From contig NZ_CP017260.1 of assembly GCF_001735745.1 (NCBI RefSeq), positions 2,490,001 through 2,522,000 of the forward strand: DNA of 32,000 bases. Direction: 5' to 3'. Positions 1,299 to 20,398 of this stretch are shown here, piece after piece. The position numbers and the translations under genes are program-made. Each line of letters starts with the position of its first letter. Position 1 is the first letter of the stretch. The notes beneath the pieces are model-generated. The model was not told the origin of the DNA. It was given only the letters and a program-made list of their open reading frames with translations, and searched no databases. The DNA is from Formosa sp. Hel1_33_131. Its GTDB lineage: Bacteria > Bacteroidota > Bacteroidia > Flavobacteriales > Flavobacteriaceae.

Positions 1299-3751
1299 AA
1301 GTCTTTTTTATCGATGTTATTTTACCGCTTTCCTTAGAGCGGAATTTCACCTACGCCATCACCAAAGCGGAAGCAGACTTTATTAAAAGAGGGGTCAGAG
1401 TTGCGGTCCCTTTTGGAAAAAACAAAGTCTATACAGGCATCGTCTATAACATACATCACATTGCGCCTACAGCTTATGAAGCGAAGTCGATTCACAGTAT
1501 ATTAGATGAAAGTCCTGTGGTCAACCAGTTTCAATTTAAATTGTGGGAGTGGATGTCAAGTTATTATTTGTGTAGCATGGGAGAAATCATGCGTGCCGCA
1601 ATGCCCAATGCTTTTTTGTTGGAAAGTGAAACGATTATCTCATTAAACCCATCCACAGAGTTTGAAGTAAACAGCTTAAAGGACGATGAGTATTTGGTGT
1701 GTGAAGCACTGCAACAACAATCCAGTTTAAAGGTCGATGAAATCAATGCGATTATTGACAGAAAAAATTCGTTCCCAGTTTTAAAACGTCTTCTCGATCA
1801 AAAAGTGATTGCTTTAGAACAGGAATTATCTGAAAAATACAAGCCTAAATTAATTCGTTGCGTACGTTTACATCCCAATTATCAGCATGAAAACGCCTTG
1901 CAAGAACTTGTGGAGACGCTGAAAAGTGCGTCCAAACAACGGGAGATTGTTTTAAGTTATTTTAATTTAGCGAACGCTACCAAACAAATCAAAGTAGCGG
2001 ATCTTAAGACCAAAAGCAAAGCGACTTCTACTCAAATTAAAACATTAATAGATAAAGGCGTTTTTGAAGAGTATCATTACCAAACCGATCGCATTCAGTT
2101 TCAAGATTCAGAGTATGGTGCTTCAACAGAACTAAATACCTATCAAGAAACCGCTTTAGAAGAAATTGATGGTCTTTTTGAAACACAAAATATTGTATTA
2201 CTTCATGGGGTAACGTCTTCGGGGAAAACCGAGATTTATGTCAAAATGATAGAATCGATTTTAGCCGAAGGAAAGCAGGCTCTCTATTTAGTGCCTGAAA
2301 TTGCGTTGACGTCGCAGTTGGTGCAGCGTTTGCAAAAATACTTTGGGAATCAAATTGCGGTTTATCACTCGCGCTATTCACAAAATGAACGTGTTGAAGT
2401 TTGGAATCATGTCTTAAATCAGTCCGAGAATGCACGTGTTGTCATTGGTGCACGCTCCTCTGTTTTTCTTCCCTTTAGTAATTTAGGACTCGTCATTGTC
2501 GATGAAGAACACGAGCAATCCTATAAGCAATTTGATCCTTCGCCACGTTACCATGCAAGAGACACAGCGATTGTGTTAGCGGCTCTATTTAAGGCAAAAA
2601 CACTTTTGGGATCCGCCACGCCGAGTCTTGAAAGTTTTTACAATGCCACCAAAGAACATAAATTTGGGTACGTAGCGATCACTAAACGTTTTAACAATGT
2701 CTTAATGCCAGAAATTGAACTGGTAGATTTGACAGATAAATACAAGCGAAAACGCATGAAAGGTCATTTTAGTGACCGATTGATTGCAGAGATAAAAGAG
2801 ACTTTAGAGGCGGAATCTCAAGTCATTTTGTTTCAAAACAGGCGTGGATATTCTCCCGTAGTATCCTGTAATACTTGCGGACACACCCCAGAATGTCCAA
2901 ATTGTGATGTGAGTTTGACCTTTCATCAATATAGAAATCAACTCCGATGCCATTATTGCAGCCATACCATGGCAATGCAACAATTTTGTGGCGCCTGTGG
3001 AGGGGTTGAAATTGACAGTAAAGGCTTTGGGACGGAACAAATTCAAGAAGAAATAGAGGTGTTATTTCCAGAGGCTAAAGTGGCTCGGATGGATTTGGAT
3101 ACCACCCGAGGAAAATACAGTTACGATCGCATTATAGCCAGCTTTGAAAATAAAGAGGTTGATATTTTAGTGGGAACGCAAATGGTTACCAAAGGGCTTG
3201 ATTTTAGACATGTAAAATTAGTAGGTGTTTTGAATGCCGATCAATTGATTAATTTTCCTGACTTTAGAGCGCATGAACGGAGTTTTCAGCTGTTGCAACA
3301 AGTTGCAGGGCGTGCAGGCAGAACCGATGAAAGGGGCAAAGTGATCATTCAAACCTACAATCCGCATCATACCATCTTGCAACAAGTATCTATAAACGAT
3401 TATGATTCCATGTTTGTAGAGCAGCTAGAAGACCGTCGTATTTATAAGTATCCTCCTTATTGCCGCATCATTAAATTGACTCTTAAACATAAGGACTATA
3501 ATAAAGTAAACGAGGGTGCTGAATGGTTGGCAATCAGTTTAAGGCATGTGTTTAAAGACAATGTCTTAGGACCTGAATTCCCTGTAGTTTCAAGAATACG
3601 GAATCAATATCATAAAAACATTTTACTTAAAATACCTCAAAATCAATCGCTGGTAAAAACGAAGTCAGTGCTTCAGAAAATTAAAATGAGTTTTTCTAGT
3701 ACGAGAGATTTCAGAGCGGTTCGCTTGCTTATTAATGTAGATAATTACTAA
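1286..3751 (+). CDS. priA: Primosomal protein N' (replication restart helicase PriA)
   Basis: 821 aa. Walker A GVTSSGKTE, DEEH box, the Cys-rich zinc region (CNTCGHTPECPNCDVSLTFHQYRNQLRCHYC) and helicase C motifs. Confidence 0.93.
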   Translation: MHAIEVFFIDVILPLSLERNFTYAITKAEADFIKRGVRVAVPFGKNKVYTGIVYNIHHIAPTAYEAKSIHSILDESPVVNQFQFKLWEWMSSYYLCSMGEIMRAAMPNAFLLESETIISLNPSTEFEVNSLKDDEYLVCEALQQQSSLKVDEINAIIDRKNSFPVLKRLLDQKVIALEQELSEKYKPKLIRCVRLHPNYQHENALQELVETLKSASKQREIVLSYFNLANATKQIKVADLKTKSKATSTQIKTLIDKGVFEEYHYQTDRIQFQDSEYGASTELNTYQETALEEIDGLFETQNIVLLHGVTSSGKTEIYVKMIESILAEGKQALYLVPEIALTSQLVQRLQKYFGNQIAVYHSRYSQNERVEVWNHVLNQSENARVVIGARSSVFLPFSNLGLVIVDEEHEQSYKQFDPSPRYHARDTAIVLAALFKAKTLLGSATPSLESFYNATKEHKFGYVAITKRFNNVLMPEIELVDLTDKYKRKRMKGHFSDRLIAEIKETLEAESQVILFQNRRGYSPVVSCNTCGHTPECPNCDVSLTFHQYRNQLRCHYCSHTMAMQQFCGACGGVEIDSKGFGTEQIQEEIEVLFPEAKVARMDLDTTRGKYSYDRIIASFENKEVDILVGTQMVTKGLDFRHVKLVGVLNADQLINFPDFRAHERSFQLLQQVAGRAGRTDERGKVIIQTYNPHHTILQQVSINDYDSMFVEQLEDRRIYKYPPYCRIIKLTLKHKDYNKVNEGAEWLAISLRHVFKDNVLGPEFPVVSRIRNQYHKNILLKIPQNQSLVKTKSVLQKIKMSFSSTRDFRAVRLLINVDNY

Positions 3752-4491
3752 TCCACAATCACATCCAAAGCTTGTGTCAATTGTGCCTTTCGAGTTCTGC
3801 TTAAGGGAAGTTTCATTTTTTCAATCTCTACATGTCTGCTATCGTAACGTTCCACTTTTTTCAAATTGACAATATAGGATTTATGGATTCTTAAGAACAG
3901 TCCTTTTGGGAGTTCGTTTTCAAAGGCTTTCATGGTCGAAAGAATAACGAAGCTTTTGTTATTAGTTATTAATTTCACGTAGTCACCGAGAGCTTCAATC
4001 CATTTGATCTCGTTGATGTATATTTTACGTTTTTTAAGATTGCTCTTTACAAAAATATGCTCTCCATCATAATCTTGGAAATTTTCTTTCATTTTTGCTT
4101 GCAATACAGTTTTAGCAATGGCTTCGTTAAAACGTTTTTTAGAGGCTGGTTTTGCTAAGTAATCGATTGCATTGTATTCGAATGCTTTAAAGGCATGAGA
4201 TGCATCTTCACTTATTATGATAACGTAAGGAGTCTTGAGTTCGGGAGTGTCGATGTAACTGTCTAAGAGATCAAATCCATCAGAAACAGAAAGGTTGACC
4301 TCCATTATAATAAGGTCTATAGGGGTTGTGAGAAGGAATTTTTTAGCTTCAACTACAGATGTGAATTTCCCCATCAAATTAAGAGAAGGGTGGTTGTTAA
4401 TTAGTCTTAATGTGGCTAATCGTTGTGTAGAATTATCGTCAACAATTATACAGTTTAAAGTCATCGGGGTTGTGTTATCAGTCGTTATCAA
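3748..4491 (-). CDS. LytTR-family two-component response regulator (receiver domain plus LytTR DNA-binding domain)
   Basis: N-terminal receiver (IIVDDN...DLIIMEVNL) and C-terminal LytTR signature (IKWIEALGDYVKL...FLRIHKSYIVNL). The start could instead be the internal Met at MTLNC. Confidence 0.85.
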   Translation of the reverse strand: MITTDNTTPMTLNCIIVDDNSTQRLATLRLINNHPSLNLMGKFTSVVEAKKFLLTTPIDLIIMEVNLSVSDGFDLLDSYIDTPELKTPYVIIISEDASHAFKAFEYNAIDYLAKPASKKRFNEAIAKTVLQAKMKENFQDYDGEHIFVKSNLKKRKIYINEIKWIEALGDYVKLITNNKSFVILSTMKAFENELPKGLFLRIHKSYIVNLKKVERYDSRHVEIEKMKLPLSRTRKAQLTQALDVIVD

Positions 4492-4643: not shown

Positions 4644-4982
4644 ATGAATCATTACGAAACTGTTTTCATCTTGAATCCCGTTTTATCTGACACACAGATA
4701 AAGGAAACAGTAAAGAAATACGAGGACTTACTCGTTTCTAAAGGAGCAAAGATGGTATCGAAAGAAGATTGGGGGCTAAAGAAATTAGCGTATCCAATCC
4801 AAAACAAAAAAAGTGGCTTTTACCACTTATTTGAATTTACAGCACCTGGAGAGGCTATTGGCCCTTTAGAAGTAGAATTTAGACGTGACGAGCGTTTTAT
4901 GCGTTATCTAACTGTTAGTTTAGATAAACATGCAATCTCATGGGCTGAAAGAAGAAGAGTTAAACTTAAAGAAAAAGCGTAA
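4644..4982 (+). CDS. rpsF: 30S ribosomal protein S6
   Basis: [16 protein letters not shown]... is the canonical S6 N-terminus. The track ORF start at 4578 adds 22 implausible residues. Confidence 0.93.
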
Positions 4983-5858: not shown

Positions 5859-8800
5859 ATGAAACAAATTTCTACACTTTTAATGTTCATTTTCACTTGT
5901 TCACTGTCCTTTTCTCAGGTGACAACTTCAAGTATTAAGGGAGCTATTTCCGATGAGACCAATACCGGTTTGCCAGGTGCAAACGTTGTTGCAGTGCACA
6001 CGCCAACAGGGACCACTTACGGAGCCGCCACCAACATTGACGGGCGATTTAACCTTGTCAACCTTAGAGTTGGCGGACCGTACACAATTACGGTTAGTTA
6101 TGTAGGTTACAAAGACCAATCGTTTACAGATGTATTCTTGACCTTAGGAAAAACAGAAAATTTAACATTAGCATTAACACTTGATGCTGGACAATTGGAT
6201 GCTGTGGTGATTACCGCAAACACTTCTAAAGGTGTTTTTGGAAGCGACCGTACAGGTGCTGAAACCAATGTAGGCCGTAGAGAATTGACAACACTTCCTA
6301 CAATTTCTAGATCTGCATCTGATTTTACACGTTTAGAGCCAACGGCAAGTAACGGTTCTTTTGGAGGACGTAACGATCAGTTTAATAACTTCTCTTTAGA
6401 TGGTGCAATTTTCAACAATCCTTTTGGATTGGATGCAGCAACTCCTGGAGGGCAAACAAATTCACAACCCGTATCTTTAGATGCCATCGATCAAATACAA
6501 GTATCAACTGCACCTTACGATGTAACGCAATCTGGATTTACTGGAGCTGCAGTAAATGCAGTGACGAAGAGTGGATCGAATGAATTTAAAGGAACTGTTT
6601 ATGGCTTCTATAGAAATGAAGACATGACGGGTTCTAAGATCAAAGGACAAGAAATTTTTGTTCCAAGTCTTACGCAACAGCAAACAGGCTTTAGTATTGG
6701 TGGACCGATCGTGAAAAACAAATTATTTTTCTTTGCCAATTACGAGCAAGATGAACGATCAGATTTAGGACAGGCATGGTTACCAAACACTGGATCTGGA
6801 GCGGTCAACGAATCTGTTGTTTTAGAATCTGACTTGATAGCTGTACAAAATGCGTTATCAACTTTAGGGTATGATACAGGCACTTACCAAGGCTTTACGC
6901 ACGAATCTGCATCTAGCAAAGGAATTTTTAAACTAGATTGGAATGTGAATGACAACAACCAATTAGCAATCATATACAACTGGTTAGATGCTTCACAAGA
7001 AAAACCTGCACATCCATCTGCACTTGGAGTAAGAGGGCCGAGCGCGACAACGCTTCAGTTTCAAAACTCAGGATACCAGATTAACAATAAATTGCAATCG
7101 GTTCAATTGGAATTGAATTCTAGATTATCGGATGAAGTGTCTAACAAACTTCAAGTTGGCTATACAAATTTTGATGATTTCAGAAACCCAATGTCTTCTG
7201 CAGCGCCTGCAATTACAATTCAAAATGGTGCTGGACAAAATTACATTATTGCTGGTCATGAGCCATTTTCAGTCAACAACGTATTGAATCAAAAAGTGTT
7301 TCAGTTTTCTAATAATATGACAATTTCTAAAGCAAACCATACCTATACAGTTGGGTTCTCTTTTGAGAAATTTGAATTTGACAACTCATTTAACCTAGGA
7401 GCTTATGGCTATGGAAATGATGATGGATATGTAGGTGCTTTTGGTGCTTTTGGATCTATGGGAGATTTCTTAGCAGCTTCTACAAACGGATTGTTATCTG
7501 AAGCTTTAGCAAATGCACAAACTGTTAAAAATGCTGATTCATGGGCTTTAGCTGAAACAAATGTTGGACAATTGGCATTTTACCTTCAAGATGAATGGGA
7601 TGTAAATGACAACTTCAAATTAACTTACGGCTTGCGTTTTGATAAGCCTTTGTTTTTTGATTCTGCTCAAAAAGCACAAGAAGTGATTGATGTCTCTTTT
7701 TACCAACCAGAAATTCCTTACGTAAATCCTAATACAGGAGAAGTTCAATTATTGGACAGCACACAAATGCCATCAAACGATTGGTTAGTCTCTCCACGTG
7801 TTGGATTTAACTATGATGTAAAAGGAGATAGTACGATCCAATTAAGAGGAGGGTCTGGTTTATTTACAGGACGTTTTCCTTTTGTATGGTTAGGAAACCA
7901 AATCGGAAACCCTAATTCATATTTCTACCAAATGGTAGATCCTGATTATAAGTTCCCACAAGTTTGGAGAACGAATTTAGGATTGGATCACAAATATGAC
8001 AATGGATTGATTCTTACGGCAGATGTATCTTACACGAAAGATATGAATGGTGCACAAGTACAAAACTGGGGACTTACAACGCCATCAGGGACTTTAGCAG
8101 GTGTGGATAACAGACCTTATTACACAGACGCTGACAAAATTAACAACGCTTATGTATTTACAAATTCTGATAAAGGACGTATTTGGAATGCATCATTCAA
8201 AGCACAAAAAACGTTTGACAATGGTTTATATACCATGTTAGCTTATAGCTATTTAGATTCAAAAGATGTCAACTCCATTGAAGCTGAAATTACAGGAGAT
8301 GCATTTGATTTCAACCCCGTTGTTGGAGATGTAAATTCAGATGAATTATCGTACTCTAGATATGGAGATACGCACCGTTTGATTGGTGTTGTTAGTAAAA
8401 AATGGAACTACGGTACCAACAAAAAATGGGGAACTACGCTTTCTACTTTCTTTGAATATTCTCGTGGAGGTCGTTTTAGCTATACCTATGCAGGAAACAT
8501 TAACGGCGATACATCGTTTCAAAATAATGACCTTTTATATGTGCCAACATCTGCAGAGATTCAGCAAATGCAGTTTGACCCTACGGGAGATCCTGGGCAA
8601 GCAGCAGCTTTTGACAATTACATCGCACAAGACGATTATTTAAGTGGTCGTAGAGGGCAATATGCAGAGCGTTACGGCGCACAAGCACCATGGAGAGGCC
8701 GTTGGGATGTGAAATTTTTACAAGATTATAAAATCAAAATTTCTGAAAACAAAACCAACACCATCCAGTTCAGTGTCGATGTTTTAAACTTTGGAAACTT

Positions 8801-16859: not shown

Positions 16860-18230
16860 ATGGTATCTAAACCACGCATATCTAAAGGAACGCGAGATTT
16901 TTCTCCAAAGCAGTTGGCAAATCGCGACTACATTTTTAGTACCATAAAATCAAATTTTAAAAAATTTGGATTCCAGCCCATTGAAACACCGAGTTTTGAA
17001 TTGGCGGAAACCTTATTGGGGAAATATGGAGAAGAAGGAGATCGCCTCATTTTTAAGATTTTAAACTCTGGCGATAAAGTCAAAAAAGCAGATTTGCAAG
17101 CCCTTGAAGATGGCAACTTAGCACGCTTTTCAAATTCACTCACAGAGAAAGCTTTGCGCTACGATCTGACTGTGCCTTTTGCACGTTATGTAGCACAATA
17201 CCAAAACGATATTGTATTCCCATTCAAACGCTATCAAATTCAACCCGTTTGGCGGGCCGATCGTCCTCAAAAAGGACGGTTTCAAGAATTTTATCAGTGT
17301 GATGCGGATGTGGTCGGCTCCAAATCCTTATGGCAAGAAATTGAATTCATTCAATTGTATGACGCCGTTTTTTCAGATTTAAACCTAAAGGGCGTTACCA
17401 TAAAAATAAACAACAGAAAAATATTAGCAGGCATCGCCGAATTGATTGGTGCTCAAGACAAGCTCATCGATTTTACGGTCGCTTTGGATAAGCTTGATAA
17501 AATAGGAGCGGAAAAAGTTAAAGAAGAAATGCTTAAAAAAGGCATCACTTCTGAAGGCATTTCTAAACTCGAACCTCTTTTTAATTTGACAGGTGATTTC
17601 TCAGATCAATTACAATCTTTAAAATCAATTTTAAGCACTTCTACGGAAGGCATAAAAGGCGTAGAAGAACTAGAGTTTATTGCGTCTTCTGTGGCTGCAT
17701 TAGGGCTTAAAACTGCCAAACTACAAATGGATGTCACCCTAGCACGGGGTCTTAATTACTACACAGGTGCTATTTTTGAAGTGGCTGCACCAGAATCTGT
17801 ACAAATGGGTTCCATTGGCGGCGGTGGTCGTTACGATGATTTGACCGGCATATTTGGACTCAAAGATGTGAGTGGGGTAGGGATTAGTTTTGGATTGGAC
17901 CGAATTTATTTGGTCTTGGAAGAATTAAACTTATTTCCAACAGATAAAACACTATCCACCAAAGTACTTTTTATCAATTTTGGAACTTCAGAAAGTTTGT
18001 ACAGCTTAAAAGCGATTACAGCCTTGAGATCAAAATCCATTGCCACTGAATTATATCCGGATGCTGCGAAGCTAAAAAAGCAAATGATGTACTGCAACAA
18101 GCGCGAAATACCTTATGTAGTTATGGTTGGAGAATCGGAAATAGAACAGAATAAATACTTGTTAAAAGACATGAATTCTGGGGAGCAGCAATTGGTTGCT
18201 TTAGAGGAACTTATGAAAATCGTTTCTTAA
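16860..18230 (+). CDS. hisS: Histidine--tRNA ligase
   Basis: 456 aa. Class II motifs (RYDLTVPFARY, FKRYQIQPVWRADRPQKGRFQEFYQCD, GGGGRYD, GISFGLDR). Confidence 0.95.
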   Translation: MVSKPRISKGTRDFSPKQLANRDYIFSTIKSNFKKFGFQPIETPSFELAETLLGKYGEEGDRLIFKILNSGDKVKKADLQALEDGNLARFSNSLTEKALRYDLTVPFARYVAQYQNDIVFPFKRYQIQPVWRADRPQKGRFQEFYQCDADVVGSKSLWQEIEFIQLYDAVFSDLNLKGVTIKINNRKILAGIAELIGAQDKLIDFTVALDKLDKIGAEKVKEEMLKKGITSEGISKLEPLFNLTGDFSDQLQSLKSILSTSTEGIKGVEELEFIASSVAALGLKTAKLQMDVTLARGLNYYTGAIFEVAAPESVQMGSIGGGGRYDDLTGIFGLKDVSGVGISFGLDRIYLVLEELNLFPTDKTLSTKVLFINFGTSESLYSLKAITALRSKSIATELYPDAAKLKKQMMYCNKREIPYVVMVGESEIEQNKYLLKDMNSGEQQLVALEELMKIVS

Positions 18231-18232
18231 TA

Positions 18233-18270
18233 TTTTTGCAAAAAACACCTCCTTTTCTTATATTTGGATT
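18233..18270 (+). promoter_or_regulatory. Bacteroidota-type promoter of TA-like module 1 (TTG at 18236-18238, TATATTTG at 18259-18266)
   Basis: Matches the -33 TTG / -7 TAnnTTTG consensus. The same block (tttgc..aaaa.c.tc.ttttc..tatattt) precedes modules 2 (18734-18766) and 3 (19222-19253). Confidence 0.5.
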
Positions 18271-18285
18271 ATAAACATTAAAAAA

Positions 18286-18477
18286 ATGACCACAATTACG
18301 ATTGAAAACGGCAAAGATCTTCCCCAAAAAACATTTAGCAATTGGGAAGAACTGCGAAATATATTGAATTTTATGGCGCTTCAGTTTAAGCAAACTAAAG
18401 AATCTTCTACCATACCCGAAAATCTAAAAGAGAAACCATTATCAGCTTTCAACTACCTGACTGATGAAAGTTTATGA
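18286..18477 (+). CDS. Putative antitoxin of TA-like module 1 (63 aa)
   Basis: Starts MTTITIENGKDLP. Upstream partner, overlapping the next ORF by 14 nt. Paralogous to 18786-18977 and 19274-19474. Confidence 0.55.
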   Translation: MTTITIENGKDLPQKTFSNWEELRNILNFMALQFKQTKESSTIPENLKEKPLSAFNYLTDESL

Positions 18478-18700
18478 AACTGACACAGCAGTTGCCTATT
18501 TAAAAAAGAGAGAACTCATTAAACCGTATCTCAAAGCCAAACAATACTTTGAGCAAGGACATACTCGAATGGTTAAGCTAAAACTATTACAACCTAAGAA
18601 AAATAAAGAATACCAATTTAGGATAAACGATAAATATCGTGCTCGTGGTTTTTACAAAGAAAACGGTTTTTTGGTCACTGAAATATCCGACCATCAGTAA
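18464..18700 (+). CDS. Putative RelE/ParE/HigB-superfamily-like toxin of module 1 (78 aa)
   Basis: ...YQFRINDKYRARGFYKENGFLVTEISDHQ* resembles the HigB/ParE-like C-terminal pattern (RIN..YR..F.......V.I.DH). The family assignment is tentative. Confidence 0.5.
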   Translation: MKVYETDTAVAYLKKRELIKPYLKAKQYFEQGHTRMVKLKLLQPKKNKEYQFRINDKYRARGFYKENGFLVTEISDHQ

Positions 18701-18785
18701 AACTTCAAGAGATATTCCCCCACCCAAACAAAAATTTGCACAAAAACCCTCTTTTCCATATATTTAACTGTTAATAATAAAAAAA

Positions 18786-18977
18786 ATGACGACAATTACT
18801 ATCAAAGACGGACAAAAATTACCAAAAACTGAGTTTGGAACAATCAAAGATTTTCTAGAATGGGCTGTTGATCATTTTCAAGAAGAAATACCTTTGTCAG
18901 AAAAAACTATCAAGAAAGCAGCAAAAGCCAAGAAAGAAATTTCATCGCCAAACTCAACTTTTAAACCGGCATTATAA
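18786..18977 (+). CDS. Putative antitoxin of TA-like module 2 (63 aa)
   Basis: Starts MTTITIKDGQKLP. Its stop overlaps the next start as TAATG. Confidence 0.55.
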   Translation: MTTITIKDGQKLPKTEFGTIKDFLEWAVDHFQEEIPLSEKTIKKAAKAKKEISSPNSTFKPAL

Positions 18978-19213
18978 TGCTCGTGTTTGATAATGAAAAT
19001 GCTCGAAAAGATTTACAAAAATTTCAATTAACCAAGCAATACAAAAAAGCTTGTGATTATATTCGTGATGACCAATATTATAAGGTTCAATTAAAACTGC
19101 GGAAACCGAAATCAAAAGGTATTTACCAGTTTAGAATTTATAAAAAATACCGTGCCTTTGCTATCAAAAAAGAACAAACTTTATTTGTTTTTGAAATCTT
19201 CGACCATCAGTAA
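18977..19213 (+). CDS. Putative RelE/ParE-like toxin of module 2 (78 aa)
   Basis: ...YQFRIYKKYRAFAIKKEQTLFVFEIFDHQ*, paralogous to 18464-18700. Confidence 0.5.
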   Translation: MLVFDNENARKDLQKFQLTKQYKKACDYIRDDQYYKVQLKLRKPKSKGIYQFRIYKKYRAFAIKKEQTLFVFEIFDHQ

Positions 19214-19273
19214 AACAAAAATTTGCCCAAAAAACCTCTTTTCCGTATATTTGGACTGTAAATAATAAAAAAA

Positions 19274-19474
19274 ATGACCACAATTACCATAAAAGAAGGC
19301 AACGCTTTATCCCGTTCTGTATTTTGAACATTTGAAGATCTCATTGAGGAGTACTACGCTTCCAAAGGAGTTGTGTTATTACATCAAATTGATCTAGAAG
19401 ACTTGCCAGCAGCCTCTCAAAAGTTGATTGAAGAATCCAAGAAAAAGGGAAAAAAAGATTTGCATGATTTTTAG
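19274..19474 (+). pseudogene. Antitoxin-like gene of module 3, interrupted by an in-frame TGA at 19325-19327
   Basis: MTTITIKEGNALSRSVF*TFEDLIEEYYASKG...HDF*. The frame is otherwise open to 19474. Missing from the ORF track because of the stop. Confidence 0.7.
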
Positions 19475-19476
19475 GG

Positions 19477-19713
19477 ATGAAAGTAAGAGAAAGACAGAAA
19501 GCCATTGATTATTTAAAGAAAAGACAACTCGAAACATCGTACTTTAAAGCAAAATCATATTTATCTAAAGACCAATTCAAAATGGTCGATTTTAAATTGA
19601 GACAACCAAAATCAGATGGAATTTATTATTTTCGAATCACCCGAAAATACTAGGCTATAGGTCACTTTATCGATGATGTTTTTGTTGTTACTGAAATCTC
19701 TGATCATCAGTGA
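19477..19713 (+). pseudogene. Toxin-like gene of module 3, interrupted by an in-frame TAG at 19651-19653
   Basis: MKVRERQKAIDYLKKRQLETSYFKAKSYLSKDQFKMVDFKLRQPKSDGIYYFRITRKY*AIGHFIDDVFVVTEISDHQ*. The TAG replaces the conserved Arg codon (KYRA) of modules 1 and 2. Confidence 0.7.
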
Positions 19714-19757
19714 AACTTCAGAATAAACAGCACAAAAGAAAACTTGTTTTTAGCCAT

Positions 19758-19787
19758 AAAAAAAAGACTCTCAATTTCTTGAAAGTC
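19758..19787 (-). terminator. Rho-independent terminator downstream of the tRNA
   Basis: Minus strand: gactttcaa-gaaa-ttgagagtc followed by T8. Confidence 0.65.
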
Positions 19788-19803
19788 CTTTGATTATCTA
19801 GTA

Positions 19804-19877
19804 GCGAGAGCGGGGCACGATCCCGCGACCTCCGGGTTATGAATCCGACGCTCTAACCAGCTGAGCTACCTCGCCAT
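19804..19877 (-). tRNA. tRNA with a CAT anticodon (Met, or Ile2 if lysidine-modified); 74 nt, no encoded CCA
   Basis: Minus strand: GGCGAGG-TA-GCTCAGCTGGTTAGAGC-G-TCGGA-TTCATAA-CCCGG-AGGTC-GCGGG-ATCGTGC-CCCGC-TCTCGCT-A. This folds as a cloverleaf. The acceptor stem has G1.U72 and G7.U66. Confidence 0.85.
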
Positions 19878-20011
19878 AATTTAGATGGCTGCAAATATAA
19901 AAACAATATATCGCCTCACAAATAAATACCCCTTTAAAAAAAAATTAAAATTCCTAACAGAACTAACCAATTATTGTATATATTGGATTTTTTTAAATTT
20001 CAAATCACCCA

Positions 20012-20398
20012 ATGAGTAATAAAATTAAATTCGAGTTAGAATACCCAATACAAGCGTCCCCTCAATTGTTGTATCAATACATCTCAACGCCTTCTGGATT
20101 GTCAGAATGGTTTGCAGACAATGTGAACTCAAGAGGTGAATTGTTTACCTTTATATGGGATGATTCAGAAGAAGAAGCCAAATTGTTAACGAAAAAAAAT
20201 GGCGAGCGTGCCAAATTCAAATGGCTCGACGGCAATGAAGATCAGTCTTATTTTGAAATCAGAATTCAAGTTGATGGAATCACAAAAGATGTGTCGTTAA
20301 TGGTCACCGATTTTGCCGAAGACGACGAAGTAGAAGAAACAAAGATGCTTTGGGACAACCAAATATCGGATTTGAAGCAAATCTTAGGTTCTTCCTAG
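20012..20398 (+). CDS. START-like/AHSA1-like (SRPBCC-fold) domain protein
   Basis: 128 aa. The pattern ...PQLLYQYISTPSGLSEWFADNV... is typical of small START-like proteins in Bacteroidota. Confidence 0.55.
   Translation: MSNKIKFELEYPIQASPQLLYQYISTPSGLSEWFADNVNSRGELFTFIWDDSEEEAKLLTKKNGERAKFKWLDGNEDQSYFEIRIQVDGITKDVSLMVTDFAEDDEVEETKMLWDNQISDLKQILGSS

Follow-up and report, generated by a model that had tools for sequence, protein, structure and literature searches.

The RelE/ParE superfamily includes the toxins of several well-studied toxin-antitoxin (TA) systems, such as YefM-YoeB, RelBE, DinJ-YafQ, HigBA and ParDE. Here, we describe an array of three small gene pairs between hisS (histidyl-tRNA synthetase) and a tRNA(CAT) gene in Formosa sp. 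Hel1_33_131. The array lies within a stretch of 32,000 nucleotides (contig NZ_CP017260.1, positions 2,490,001 to 2,522,000 of the forward strand; RefSeq assembly GCF_001735745.1), which we refer to as the window and whose first letter is position 1 of the coordinates given below, unless another locus is named. We consider it highly probable that the array is composed of three autonomous type II TA cassettes of one small, unannotated family, located in a hypervariable spot. YefM-YoeB is the most similar of the known systems: YoeB is the best structural match of the predicted toxin, has the same fold and a similar size, shares equivalents of Arg65 and His83, and is likewise encoded behind an upstream, overlapping antitoxin gene. 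However, the toxin is only ~17% identical to YoeB, only one of 86 family members matches the Pfam family YoeB_toxin, Glu46 of YoeB is unmatched, and the C-terminus reads DHQ instead of YHY. Unlike YefM/Phd, the antitoxin is without a Pfam or PDB match and has a different predicted secondary structure. RelBE, DinJ-YafQ and HigBA share the superfamily fold (template-modelling (TM) scores of 0.66-0.73), a HigB-like Pfam family matches 11 of the 86 members, and basic residues of the toxin occupy the positions of the catalytic Lys and Arg residues of RelE. In contrast to these systems, to which there is no significant sequence match, the antitoxin was not recognized as a ribbon-helix-helix or helix-turn-helix protein by any search made, and the gene order is opposite to that of HigBA. 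Finally, ParDE is represented by the most frequent Pfam match (PF24732) and by ParE2 among the fold matches, but the window proteins do not reach the gathering cut-off and are shorter than ParE. As the toxin is shorter and keeps YoeB-type catalytic residues, gyrase is an unlikely target.

Arrays and clusters of TA genes are also known. In the sedentary chromosomal integrons of Vibrio, small promoter-bearing TA cassettes are arranged in tandem and vary from strain to strain; in contrast, no IntI or attC was found here, and the spacers, which double as the promoters, form no stable fold. In Photorhabdus, TA ‘islets’ are clusters in small variable spots among core genes, often without mobile-element genes, and TA loss is frequent, with the toxin usually pseudogenized first and the antitoxin next (toxin-only 185, both-gene 186 and antitoxin-only 8 cases) (Belot et al. 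2026, PMC13617665). The Formosa locus has the same clustering in a variable spot and the same toxin-first pattern of erosion, so that neither feature is new and no new kind of system is described here. In contrast to the Photorhabdus islets, the host is a marine member of the Flavobacteriaceae and there is one family per spot, with homologous promoter spacers of 60-85 nt and near-identical gene ends; because spacers and gene ends are shared, the impression is that of a homogeneous cassette array and not of a mixed cluster. Somewhat unusual are this homogeneity, the intense turnover of cassettes and the many independent toxin knock-outs among near-identical genomes. The locus adds a compact, 78-amino-acid YoeB/RelE-like toxin lineage and an unannotated antitoxin family, and its population data are a natural experiment on TA erosion in marine bacteria. 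They support the toxin-first model established for Photorhabdus, with metagenomes as their sole source and in a phylum far from that genus, and may be taken as in-silico evidence of toxicity for this toxin family.

Architecture and protein families of the cassettes

The array consists of three head-to-tail units of 500, 488 and ~500 bp (modules 1 to 3; Table 1), whose whole-length alignment has a mean column identity of 72%, far above chance. Each unit contains a promoter block, an A-rich leader, an open reading frame (ORF) of 63-68 codons starting with MTTITI, and an overlapping, translationally coupled 78-codon ORF ending in DHQ. The two ORFs overlap by 14 nt in module 1, 1 nt (TAATG) in module 2 and 4 nt (ATGA) in module 3. 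This is a type II architecture, that is, a small, co-directional and (near-)overlapping pair with the antitoxin gene first and with its own promoter. An initial annotation of the window had already placed three units of ~500 bp, each with a promoter block and the two ORFs, at the same coordinates; the length of 63-66 codons that it gave for the first ORF holds for modules 1 and 2 (63 each), whereas the ORF of module 3 originally had 68 codons. Promoters used by Bacteroidetes sigma-A have the consensus TTTG-N19-21-TAnnTTTG, which is fitted by the promoter blocks of all three modules with a spacing of N20, and the promoter of module 3, both genes of which are dead, is still intact. A weak TTTGCAAA-type symmetry is found in the promoter block of module 1 alone and is absent from those of the other modules. 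No hairpin or terminator was found in spacer 1, and the tRNA was the sole non-coding RNA match in an Rfam scan of the region.

The structure of the module 2 toxin (m2T) was modelled with AlphaFold on the family alignment (predicted local distance difference test (pLDDT) 94.7; predicted TM score (pTM) 0.81). The model has the topology beta-alpha-alpha-beta-beta-beta (E2-5, H7-16, H19-30, E49-55, E58-65 and E68-76), comprising the N-terminal strand, two helices and three-stranded antiparallel sheet of the RelE/ParE superfamily. The top 50 Foldseek matches in the PDB are all RelE/ParE-superfamily toxins or RelE domains (e.g. Cami1), the best being YoeB (7v6w; TM 0.76, probability 1.00), followed by HP0894, YafQ, RelE and RelK, with ParE2 lower. 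A profile of 86 family sequences has S. aureus YoeB (Sa2YoeB; E=8e-6) as its sole significant match among PDB sequences. When the 86 members were searched against Pfam, 13 matched ParE_like PF24732 (best E=3e-7) and 11 a HigB-like family (best E=4.5e-6), while YoeB_toxin PF06769 (E=0.005) and the ParE family PF05016 were each matched by a single member, which places the toxins outside the ParE gyrase-poison family. The sequence link to established RelE/ParE members is thus seen at the level of the family, with the window toxins alone remaining below threshold. Model, fold search and family profile agree with the superfamily named in the initial annotation: the predicted toxin is a member of the RelE/ParE superfamily that is nearest to YoeB and lies outside the curated ParE and HigB families and probably also outside that of YoeB. 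The family is small: among 1.84 billion representative proteins, no more than 174 clusters (at 50% identity) were matched by a profile built from close homologues (E<=1e-3). The module 1 toxin (m1T) matches the toxin hidden Markov model (HMM) with E=3.3e-29.

The catalytic set of YoeB consists of Glu46, Arg65, His83 and Tyr84 (E. coli numbering). In an hhalign alignment with a YoeB sequence that is a full-length match to PDB 2a6q, residues R53 and R59 of the toxin fall on R59 and R65 of YoeB, and ungapped extension puts H77 on H83. Arg59 is the sole invariant column among the 86 toxins, and conservation reaches 90% or more at Pro44, Phe52, Arg53, Ile74 and His77. Neither Glu46 nor Tyr84 has a conserved equivalent, and PF06769 matches a single member, which suggests that the family is a sister group of YoeB and not a part of it. 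Given the position of Arg59 and His77 on YoeB catalytic residues and the YoeB-type matches, the toxin is predicted to be a ribosome-dependent mRNA endonuclease and not a gyrase poison; most likely, it would cut mRNA on the ribosome, like YoeB, RelE and YafQ, by means of Arg59 and His77. That the toxin is instead a ParE-type gyrase poison appears unlikely to us, even though PF24732 is the best Pfam family among the members, ParE2 structures are among the fold matches and the catalytic Glu of YoeB is not conserved. The best matches in structure and sequence are YoeB, YafQ and RelE, with ParE2 lower (E ~0.1), the two aligned residues are invariant or nearly so, and natural knock-outs strike Arg59 twice (see below). 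To our knowledge, ParE toxins are also without residues of the YoeB Arg65/His83 type and are longer, with ~90-105 amino acids and a C-terminal extension, compared with the 78 amino acids found here.

The protein encoded upstream of the toxin could not be placed in the initial annotation, and the searches agree, with no match in Pfam, NCBIfam, PADLOC or PHROGs or in a profile search against PDB sequences. Pfam also gave no match for 24 members of the family, and the 70 detectable homologues carry no Pfam domain. Every listed antitoxin homologue has the source name ‘hypothetical protein’, as have the toxins listed, and no description of this family was found in the literature. The first six residues (MTTITI) are nearly invariant and the remainder is variable; the model has two helices (20-30 and 39-53) behind an unstructured N-terminus. 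The module 1 antitoxin (m1A) matches the antitoxin HMM with E=2.5e-18, and that of module 2 (m2A) is present in at least 119 contigs. The toxin gene directly follows an MTTITI gene, which it either overlaps or adjoins at a distance of no more than 5 nt, in Bacteroidota, Chlorobiota and Saccharibacteria and in a Clostridia-labelled metagenome-assembled genome (MAG). At least 25 loci, drawn from several phyla, have this arrangement. Judged by these sequence comparisons, the MTTITI protein is a new and unplaced family of putative antitoxins with a constant toxin partner. It would most likely neutralize the toxin by direct binding and repress the promoter; operator binding is hinted at, no more, by the conserved promoter blocks and the invariant N-terminal strand.

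Cassette content of the hisS-tRNA(CAT) spot

The three modules share 44-53% identity among their toxins and 31-34% among their antitoxins, and in a tree of ~100 family members the toxins of modules 1, 2 and 3 fall in three separate deep subclades. The module 2 toxin groups with other Flavobacteriaceae (92% identity in another MAG), that of module 3 with Polaribacter and Draconibacterium (69%), and that of module 1 elsewhere. The locus itself differs among strains. The syntenic locus L048 (GCA_028115125.1), whose hisS is 94.8% identical in nucleotide sequence, begins with hisS and the promoter block known from the window, followed by an m3-type cassette, one of a fourth type (m4), the same right flank and the tRNA gene. 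Further variants were recovered in a metagenome scan with the right-flank sequence: L056 has the arrangement of the window (m1-m2-m3), in L057 an m3 toxin and the tail of an m4 toxin form a fusion, and L059 has m1, a fifth type (m5) and m3. L058 contains a YceI-like gene and an HxlR-type regulator (1427-2760) with a 66-nt toxin 3' remnant beside the right flank, showing that the spot accepts unrelated cargo. In a sister population, m1-/m2-type arrays of 1, 3 or 5 units are located between rimO and bshC, a site that lacks a tRNA gene. Overall, the cassette copy number among close relatives ranges from 0 to 5, so that the variation suggested as a check in the initial annotation is indeed found.

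These deep subclades, the closer relatives in other genomes and the differing content of the locus indicate that the array was assembled and shuffled and not duplicated in place. In the proposed model, at least five cassette types would have been gained, lost and recombined at the hisS-tRNA(CAT) gap among closely related strains. The initial annotation had instead proposed a paralogous expansion, in which an ancestral module was duplicated twice in place and the copies diverged, the last one now decaying. The units are indeed tandem, collinear and alike in length, their promoter blocks are 74-90% identical, and local amplification of cassette pairs occurs elsewhere, in the [m1a-m2]n arrays at rimO-bshC. 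Yet the three toxins have much closer relatives in other genomes, including those of other orders, strains with ~95% identical hisS carry m3-m4, m1-m5-m3 or m3 alone at the same locus, and the hisS-proximal promoter and the spacers are conserved independently of cassette type. Duplication in place is therefore a very unlikely origin of the array, which we take to have been assembled from separate cassettes.

The conservation of the non-coding parts is seen throughout the array. The hisS-proximal promoter block is 94.5% identical between the window and L048, where an m3-type cassette follows, and L057 and L059 also have it ahead of their first cassette; the block remains at the locus, whatever cassette is first. 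The spacers are homologous regardless of the types that flank them, those between m3 and m4 in L048 and between m5 and m3 in L059 being nearly identical. Likewise, the 58 nt ahead of the module 2 and module 3 starts share 90% identity, compared with 31-46% for the proteins. On the right, the flank, the tRNA gene and the beginning of the intergenic region behind it (19714-19900, compared with L048 3199-3385) are 100% identical over 187 nt, against 94.8% for hisS and 95.5% for module 3, which suggests either a recent recombination tract or very strong constraint. Shuffling would probably occur by homologous recombination via the flanking core genes, the 60-85-nt spacers and the conserved gene ends. 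Because of an indel in hisS, an ungapped comparison with L044 was disregarded outside the array.

Site-specific assembly, by an element that targets the tRNA gene or by integron-like capture, would also account for conserved inter-cassette sequences and for unrelated cargo such as the YceI and HxlR genes of L058, and the adjoining tRNA gene, whose 3' end is 87 nt from the array (90 bp in the initial annotation), had there been noted as belonging to a classic type of integration hotspot. However, no direct repeat of the tRNA 3' end was found in 18100-20050, and no attC-like structure was found in the spacers on either strand (z-scores of -0.2 to +1.8). The Pfam-annotated genes flanking the array in this population are all housekeeping genes with no integrase among them, the rest of the window not having been scanned with Pfam, and no integrase or recombinase gene is seen among the immediate neighbours of the array or in the related loci examined. 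The array thus has neither the IntI and attC of an integron cassette array nor the integrase and tRNA 3' repeat of a tRNA-integrated island, and equivalent arrays are present at the tRNA-less rimO-bshC site. We regard site-specific assembly as highly improbable and homologous recombination as the probable route. No plasmid or phage relatives were found by tblastn against PLSDB and INPHARED or in an IMG/VR scan.

A more far-reaching version of this model, which we consider rather unlikely, is an integrase-free cassette system with shared-operator repression. The spacer/promoter, the 5' codons (ATGACNACNATTAC, encoding MTTITI) and the 3' codons (EISDHQ-stop-AAAC) would act as portable homology, allowing any existing array to gain, exchange, amplify or lose any cassette of the family. 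The promoter/operator, being shared, would be read by the invariant N-terminus of the antitoxins, such that every antitoxin represses all promoters of the array, and the variable C-terminal halves would provide toxin specificity. Antitoxins orphaned by toxin loss would be kept as ‘anti-addiction’ immunity against incoming cassettes of the same type.

Lesions and selection in the cassettes

Module 3 is a dead pair. Its antitoxin frame is interrupted by TGA at 19325-19327, where relatives have GGA (Gly), and by TAG at 19472-19474, where three co-occurring assemblies and all relatives have CAG (Gln); the latter stop is polymorphic, and the frame originally ran two codons past it, into the ATGA overlap with the toxin start. 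In the toxin, TAG at 19651-19653 replaces Arg59 of the KYRA motif, the residue invariant in 86 family members. This codon is AGG in L048, L057 and L059, and as two positions differ from the codon of these three nearest relatives, the stop did not arise by a single mutation. The in-frame TGA at 19325 and TAG at 19651, the latter at the Arg of KYRA, were correctly read in the initial annotation, but the view that one nonsense codon had silenced each gene has to be revised, with two stops in the antitoxin and two substitutions at the toxin codon.

Six independent metagenome assemblies (L043-L047 and L056) all have the same stops at 19325 and 19651, and the sequencing errors considered at the outset are therefore not their cause. 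An alternative code or recoding was considered and rejected on the stop usage of the long ORFs in the window: the 26 long ORFs end in TAA (17), TAG (7) or TGA (2), and as all three terminate ordinary genes, the standard genetic code is used. The TGA at 19325 lies on a former Gly codon; that some hosts of the family read TGA as Gly looks like a coincidence, as the window itself uses TGA as a stop. That module 3 is functional, its stops being erroneous or read through, would be in keeping with both frames being otherwise open and with the sense use of TGA in some homologues from candidate-phyla-radiation bacteria. It has next to no probability, given the recurrence of the stops, their normal use in the window, the removal of the invariant catalytic Arg, and other, unrelated lesions in the m3 toxins of relatives, including a 103-nt deletion.

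Decay is recent, as had been supposed. Compared with its L048 ortholog (95.5% identical), module 3 has 8 synonymous and 6 nonsynonymous differences, a ratio of nonsynonymous to synonymous rates (dN/dS) of 0.18, whereas neutrality predicts about 1:4 synonymous to nonsynonymous (binomial p ~0.002). Module 3 was thus functional for most of its divergence from L048. An intact copy elsewhere had been proposed as a comparison, and one exists for the antitoxin (P0211 in L048, 93% identical), whereas the toxin is broken in L048, L057 and L059. In the order that we propose, the catalytic-Arg codon of the toxin would have been lost first, followed by nonsense codons in an antitoxin that had become useless.

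By contrast, the ORFs of modules 1 and 2 are open, as initially annotated, and purifying selection on cassettes 1 and 2 is strong, with dN/dS values of 0.06 (m1T) and 0.04 (m2T) for the toxins and of 0.12 (m1A, compared with the L055 ortholog) and 0.15-0.19 (m2A) for the antitoxins. Broken toxins recur among relatives. The m3 toxin carries a different lesion in each of four near-identical backgrounds: AGG to TAG at Arg59 by two substitutions in the window, TAA at Lys57 in L048, TGA at Gly48 plus the fusion deletion in L057, and the 103-nt deletion in L059. It may be that this inactivation is selected, a possibility already raised in the initial annotation. Among the lesions in other toxins are the loss of a start codon (ATA in place of ATG), frameshifts, TAA at Glu73, and a combination of TAA at codon 5 with R59Q. 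Arg59 has hence been hit twice, by TAG in the window and by R59Q in the m4 toxin of L048. Counted by cassette lineage, nine have lesions in the toxin only, one (that of the window) in both genes, and none in the antitoxin only, the order expected if the toxin would be harmful without its partner.

The intact toxins are also polymorphic in the window population. The m2T haplotype of the window has the derived changes S55Y (19140) and S75F (19200), which segregate in the population, as does K45N (18598) in m1T. All three polymorphisms in the intact TA genes are nonsynonymous and located in toxins, with no synonymous one seen, whereas those in hisS are mostly synonymous; the excess of nonsynonymous toxin polymorphism over fixed differences has p ~0.02 on small numbers. 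K45N, S55Y and S75F may be attenuating alleles.

The pattern of loss bears on a further explanation, in which a non-toxic RelE-fold protein and its small partner have a housekeeping or regulatory role. Curated TA families score below threshold, the antitoxin has no known fold, and the plasmid and phage collections that were searched contain no relative, all of which would be in line with such a role. However, the distribution is patchy and cassette-like, in unrelated sites between core genes such as PGI, uridine kinase and secD/secF for distant members, and at rimO/bshC and hisS/tRNA. The copy number varies from 0 to 5, the downstream gene is repeatedly lost and the upstream gene kept, never the reverse, and the architecture is that of a canonical type II system. 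A housekeeping pair would not show presence/absence variation and toxin-first decay, and we find this role quite unlikely compared with that of a TA system.

Several points weigh against the reading of the array as TA cassettes. The window toxins alone reach 17.6 bits with ParE_like, below the cut-off of 24.4, and E=0.07 with the HigB-like family, and searches of the six module proteins against NCBIfam, PADLOC and PHROGs gave nothing significant. The family has K/Q/N-P-K at the position of Glu46, the general base of YoeB, and the toxin chemistry may hence be nearer to that of RelE or wholly different. The monomer model of the antitoxin is moderate (pLDDT 77, pTM 0.34), with no fold match in Foldseek and no DNA-binding fold recognized. 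For several variant arrays, the source is a single short metagenome contig, in which repeated cassettes may have been assembled wrongly; least secure are the frameshifts in L050-L052. The asymmetry of lesions is based on few events that are not fully independent. Finally, we infer all four of toxicity, neutralization, target and autoregulation.

Feature coordinates and distant family members

Coordinates of the locus are listed in Table 1. The left flank is assigned from the Pfam matches (tRNA-synt_His and HGTP_anticodon) of the identical hisS gene in L043.

Table 1. Features of the hisS-tRNA(CAT) gap and its flanks (window coordinates).
Feature	Position	Strand	Evidence or remarks
hisS (histidyl-tRNA synthetase)	16860..18230	+	456-aa ORF; conserved left flank of variable spot
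hisS-proximal promoter block	18231..18285	+	-33 TTTG 18235-18238; -7 TAtaTTTG 18259-18266; A-rich leader
m1A, module 1 antitoxin, 63 aa, MTTITI start, intact	18286..18477	+	ORF
m1T, module 1 toxin, 78 aa, RelE/YoeB-like, intact	18464..18700	+	ORF
Inter-cassette spacer 1 with promoter (TTTG 18735-18738; TAtaTTTA 18759-18766)	18701..18785	+	
m2A, module 2 antitoxin, 63 aa, intact	18786..18977	+	ORF
m2T, module 2 toxin, 78 aa, ORF intact	18977..19213	+	ORF
Inter-cassette spacer 2 with promoter (TTTG 19222-19225; TAtaTTTG 19246-19253)	19214..19273	+	
Module 3 antitoxin pseudogene, originally 68 codons	19274..19480	+	stops TGA 19325-19327, TAG 19472-19474
Module 3 toxin pseudogene, 78-codon frame	19477..19713	+	stop TAG 19651-19653
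Right junction of array	19714..19800	.	spacer-like start (AAACTTCAGA); terminator-like hairpin of the tRNA 19762-19791, minus strand
tRNA(CAT), conserved right flank of variable spot	19801..19875	-	ARAGORN; Rfam RF00005 55.9 bits

Hosts of the family include Bacteroidota, Chlorobiota and candidate-phyla-radiation bacteria. Lesions in its members suggest toxin-first decay across the whole family, although some distant cases could be code differences. In distant lineages, toxin truncations or in-frame stops are found beside intact antitoxins in L041 (3992-4204), L011 (3108-3377) and L040 (1536-1802), from a Melioribacteraceae MAG and an unclassified MAG. In-frame TGA codons occur at conserved Gly/Trp positions of the toxin (e.g. 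KYRAF*YF compared with KYRAFGYF) in L027, L033, L035, L037, L038, L025, L030 and L042. These homologues come from MAGs labelled Peribacteria, Gracilibacteria and similar, with the toxin matches near position 4000 in most, and the TGA codons indicate that these lineages, including those labelled Peribacteria, read TGA as sense (code 25 or 4).

In the Saccharibacteria MAG L028, a cassette (3749-4201) is located between secD and secF with gaps of 17 and 7 nt, and a second toxin copy (6734-6979) lies 2.5 kb downstream of it. Each of the two m1-type cassettes in the rimO-bshC array of L002 has a GC-rich palindromic repeat (…GTCATTGCGAGGAGGTACGACGTGGCAATC…) behind it (3655-3735 and 4700-4790); we take it to resemble the short interspersed palindromic repeats that are frequent among Bacteroidetes genomes.

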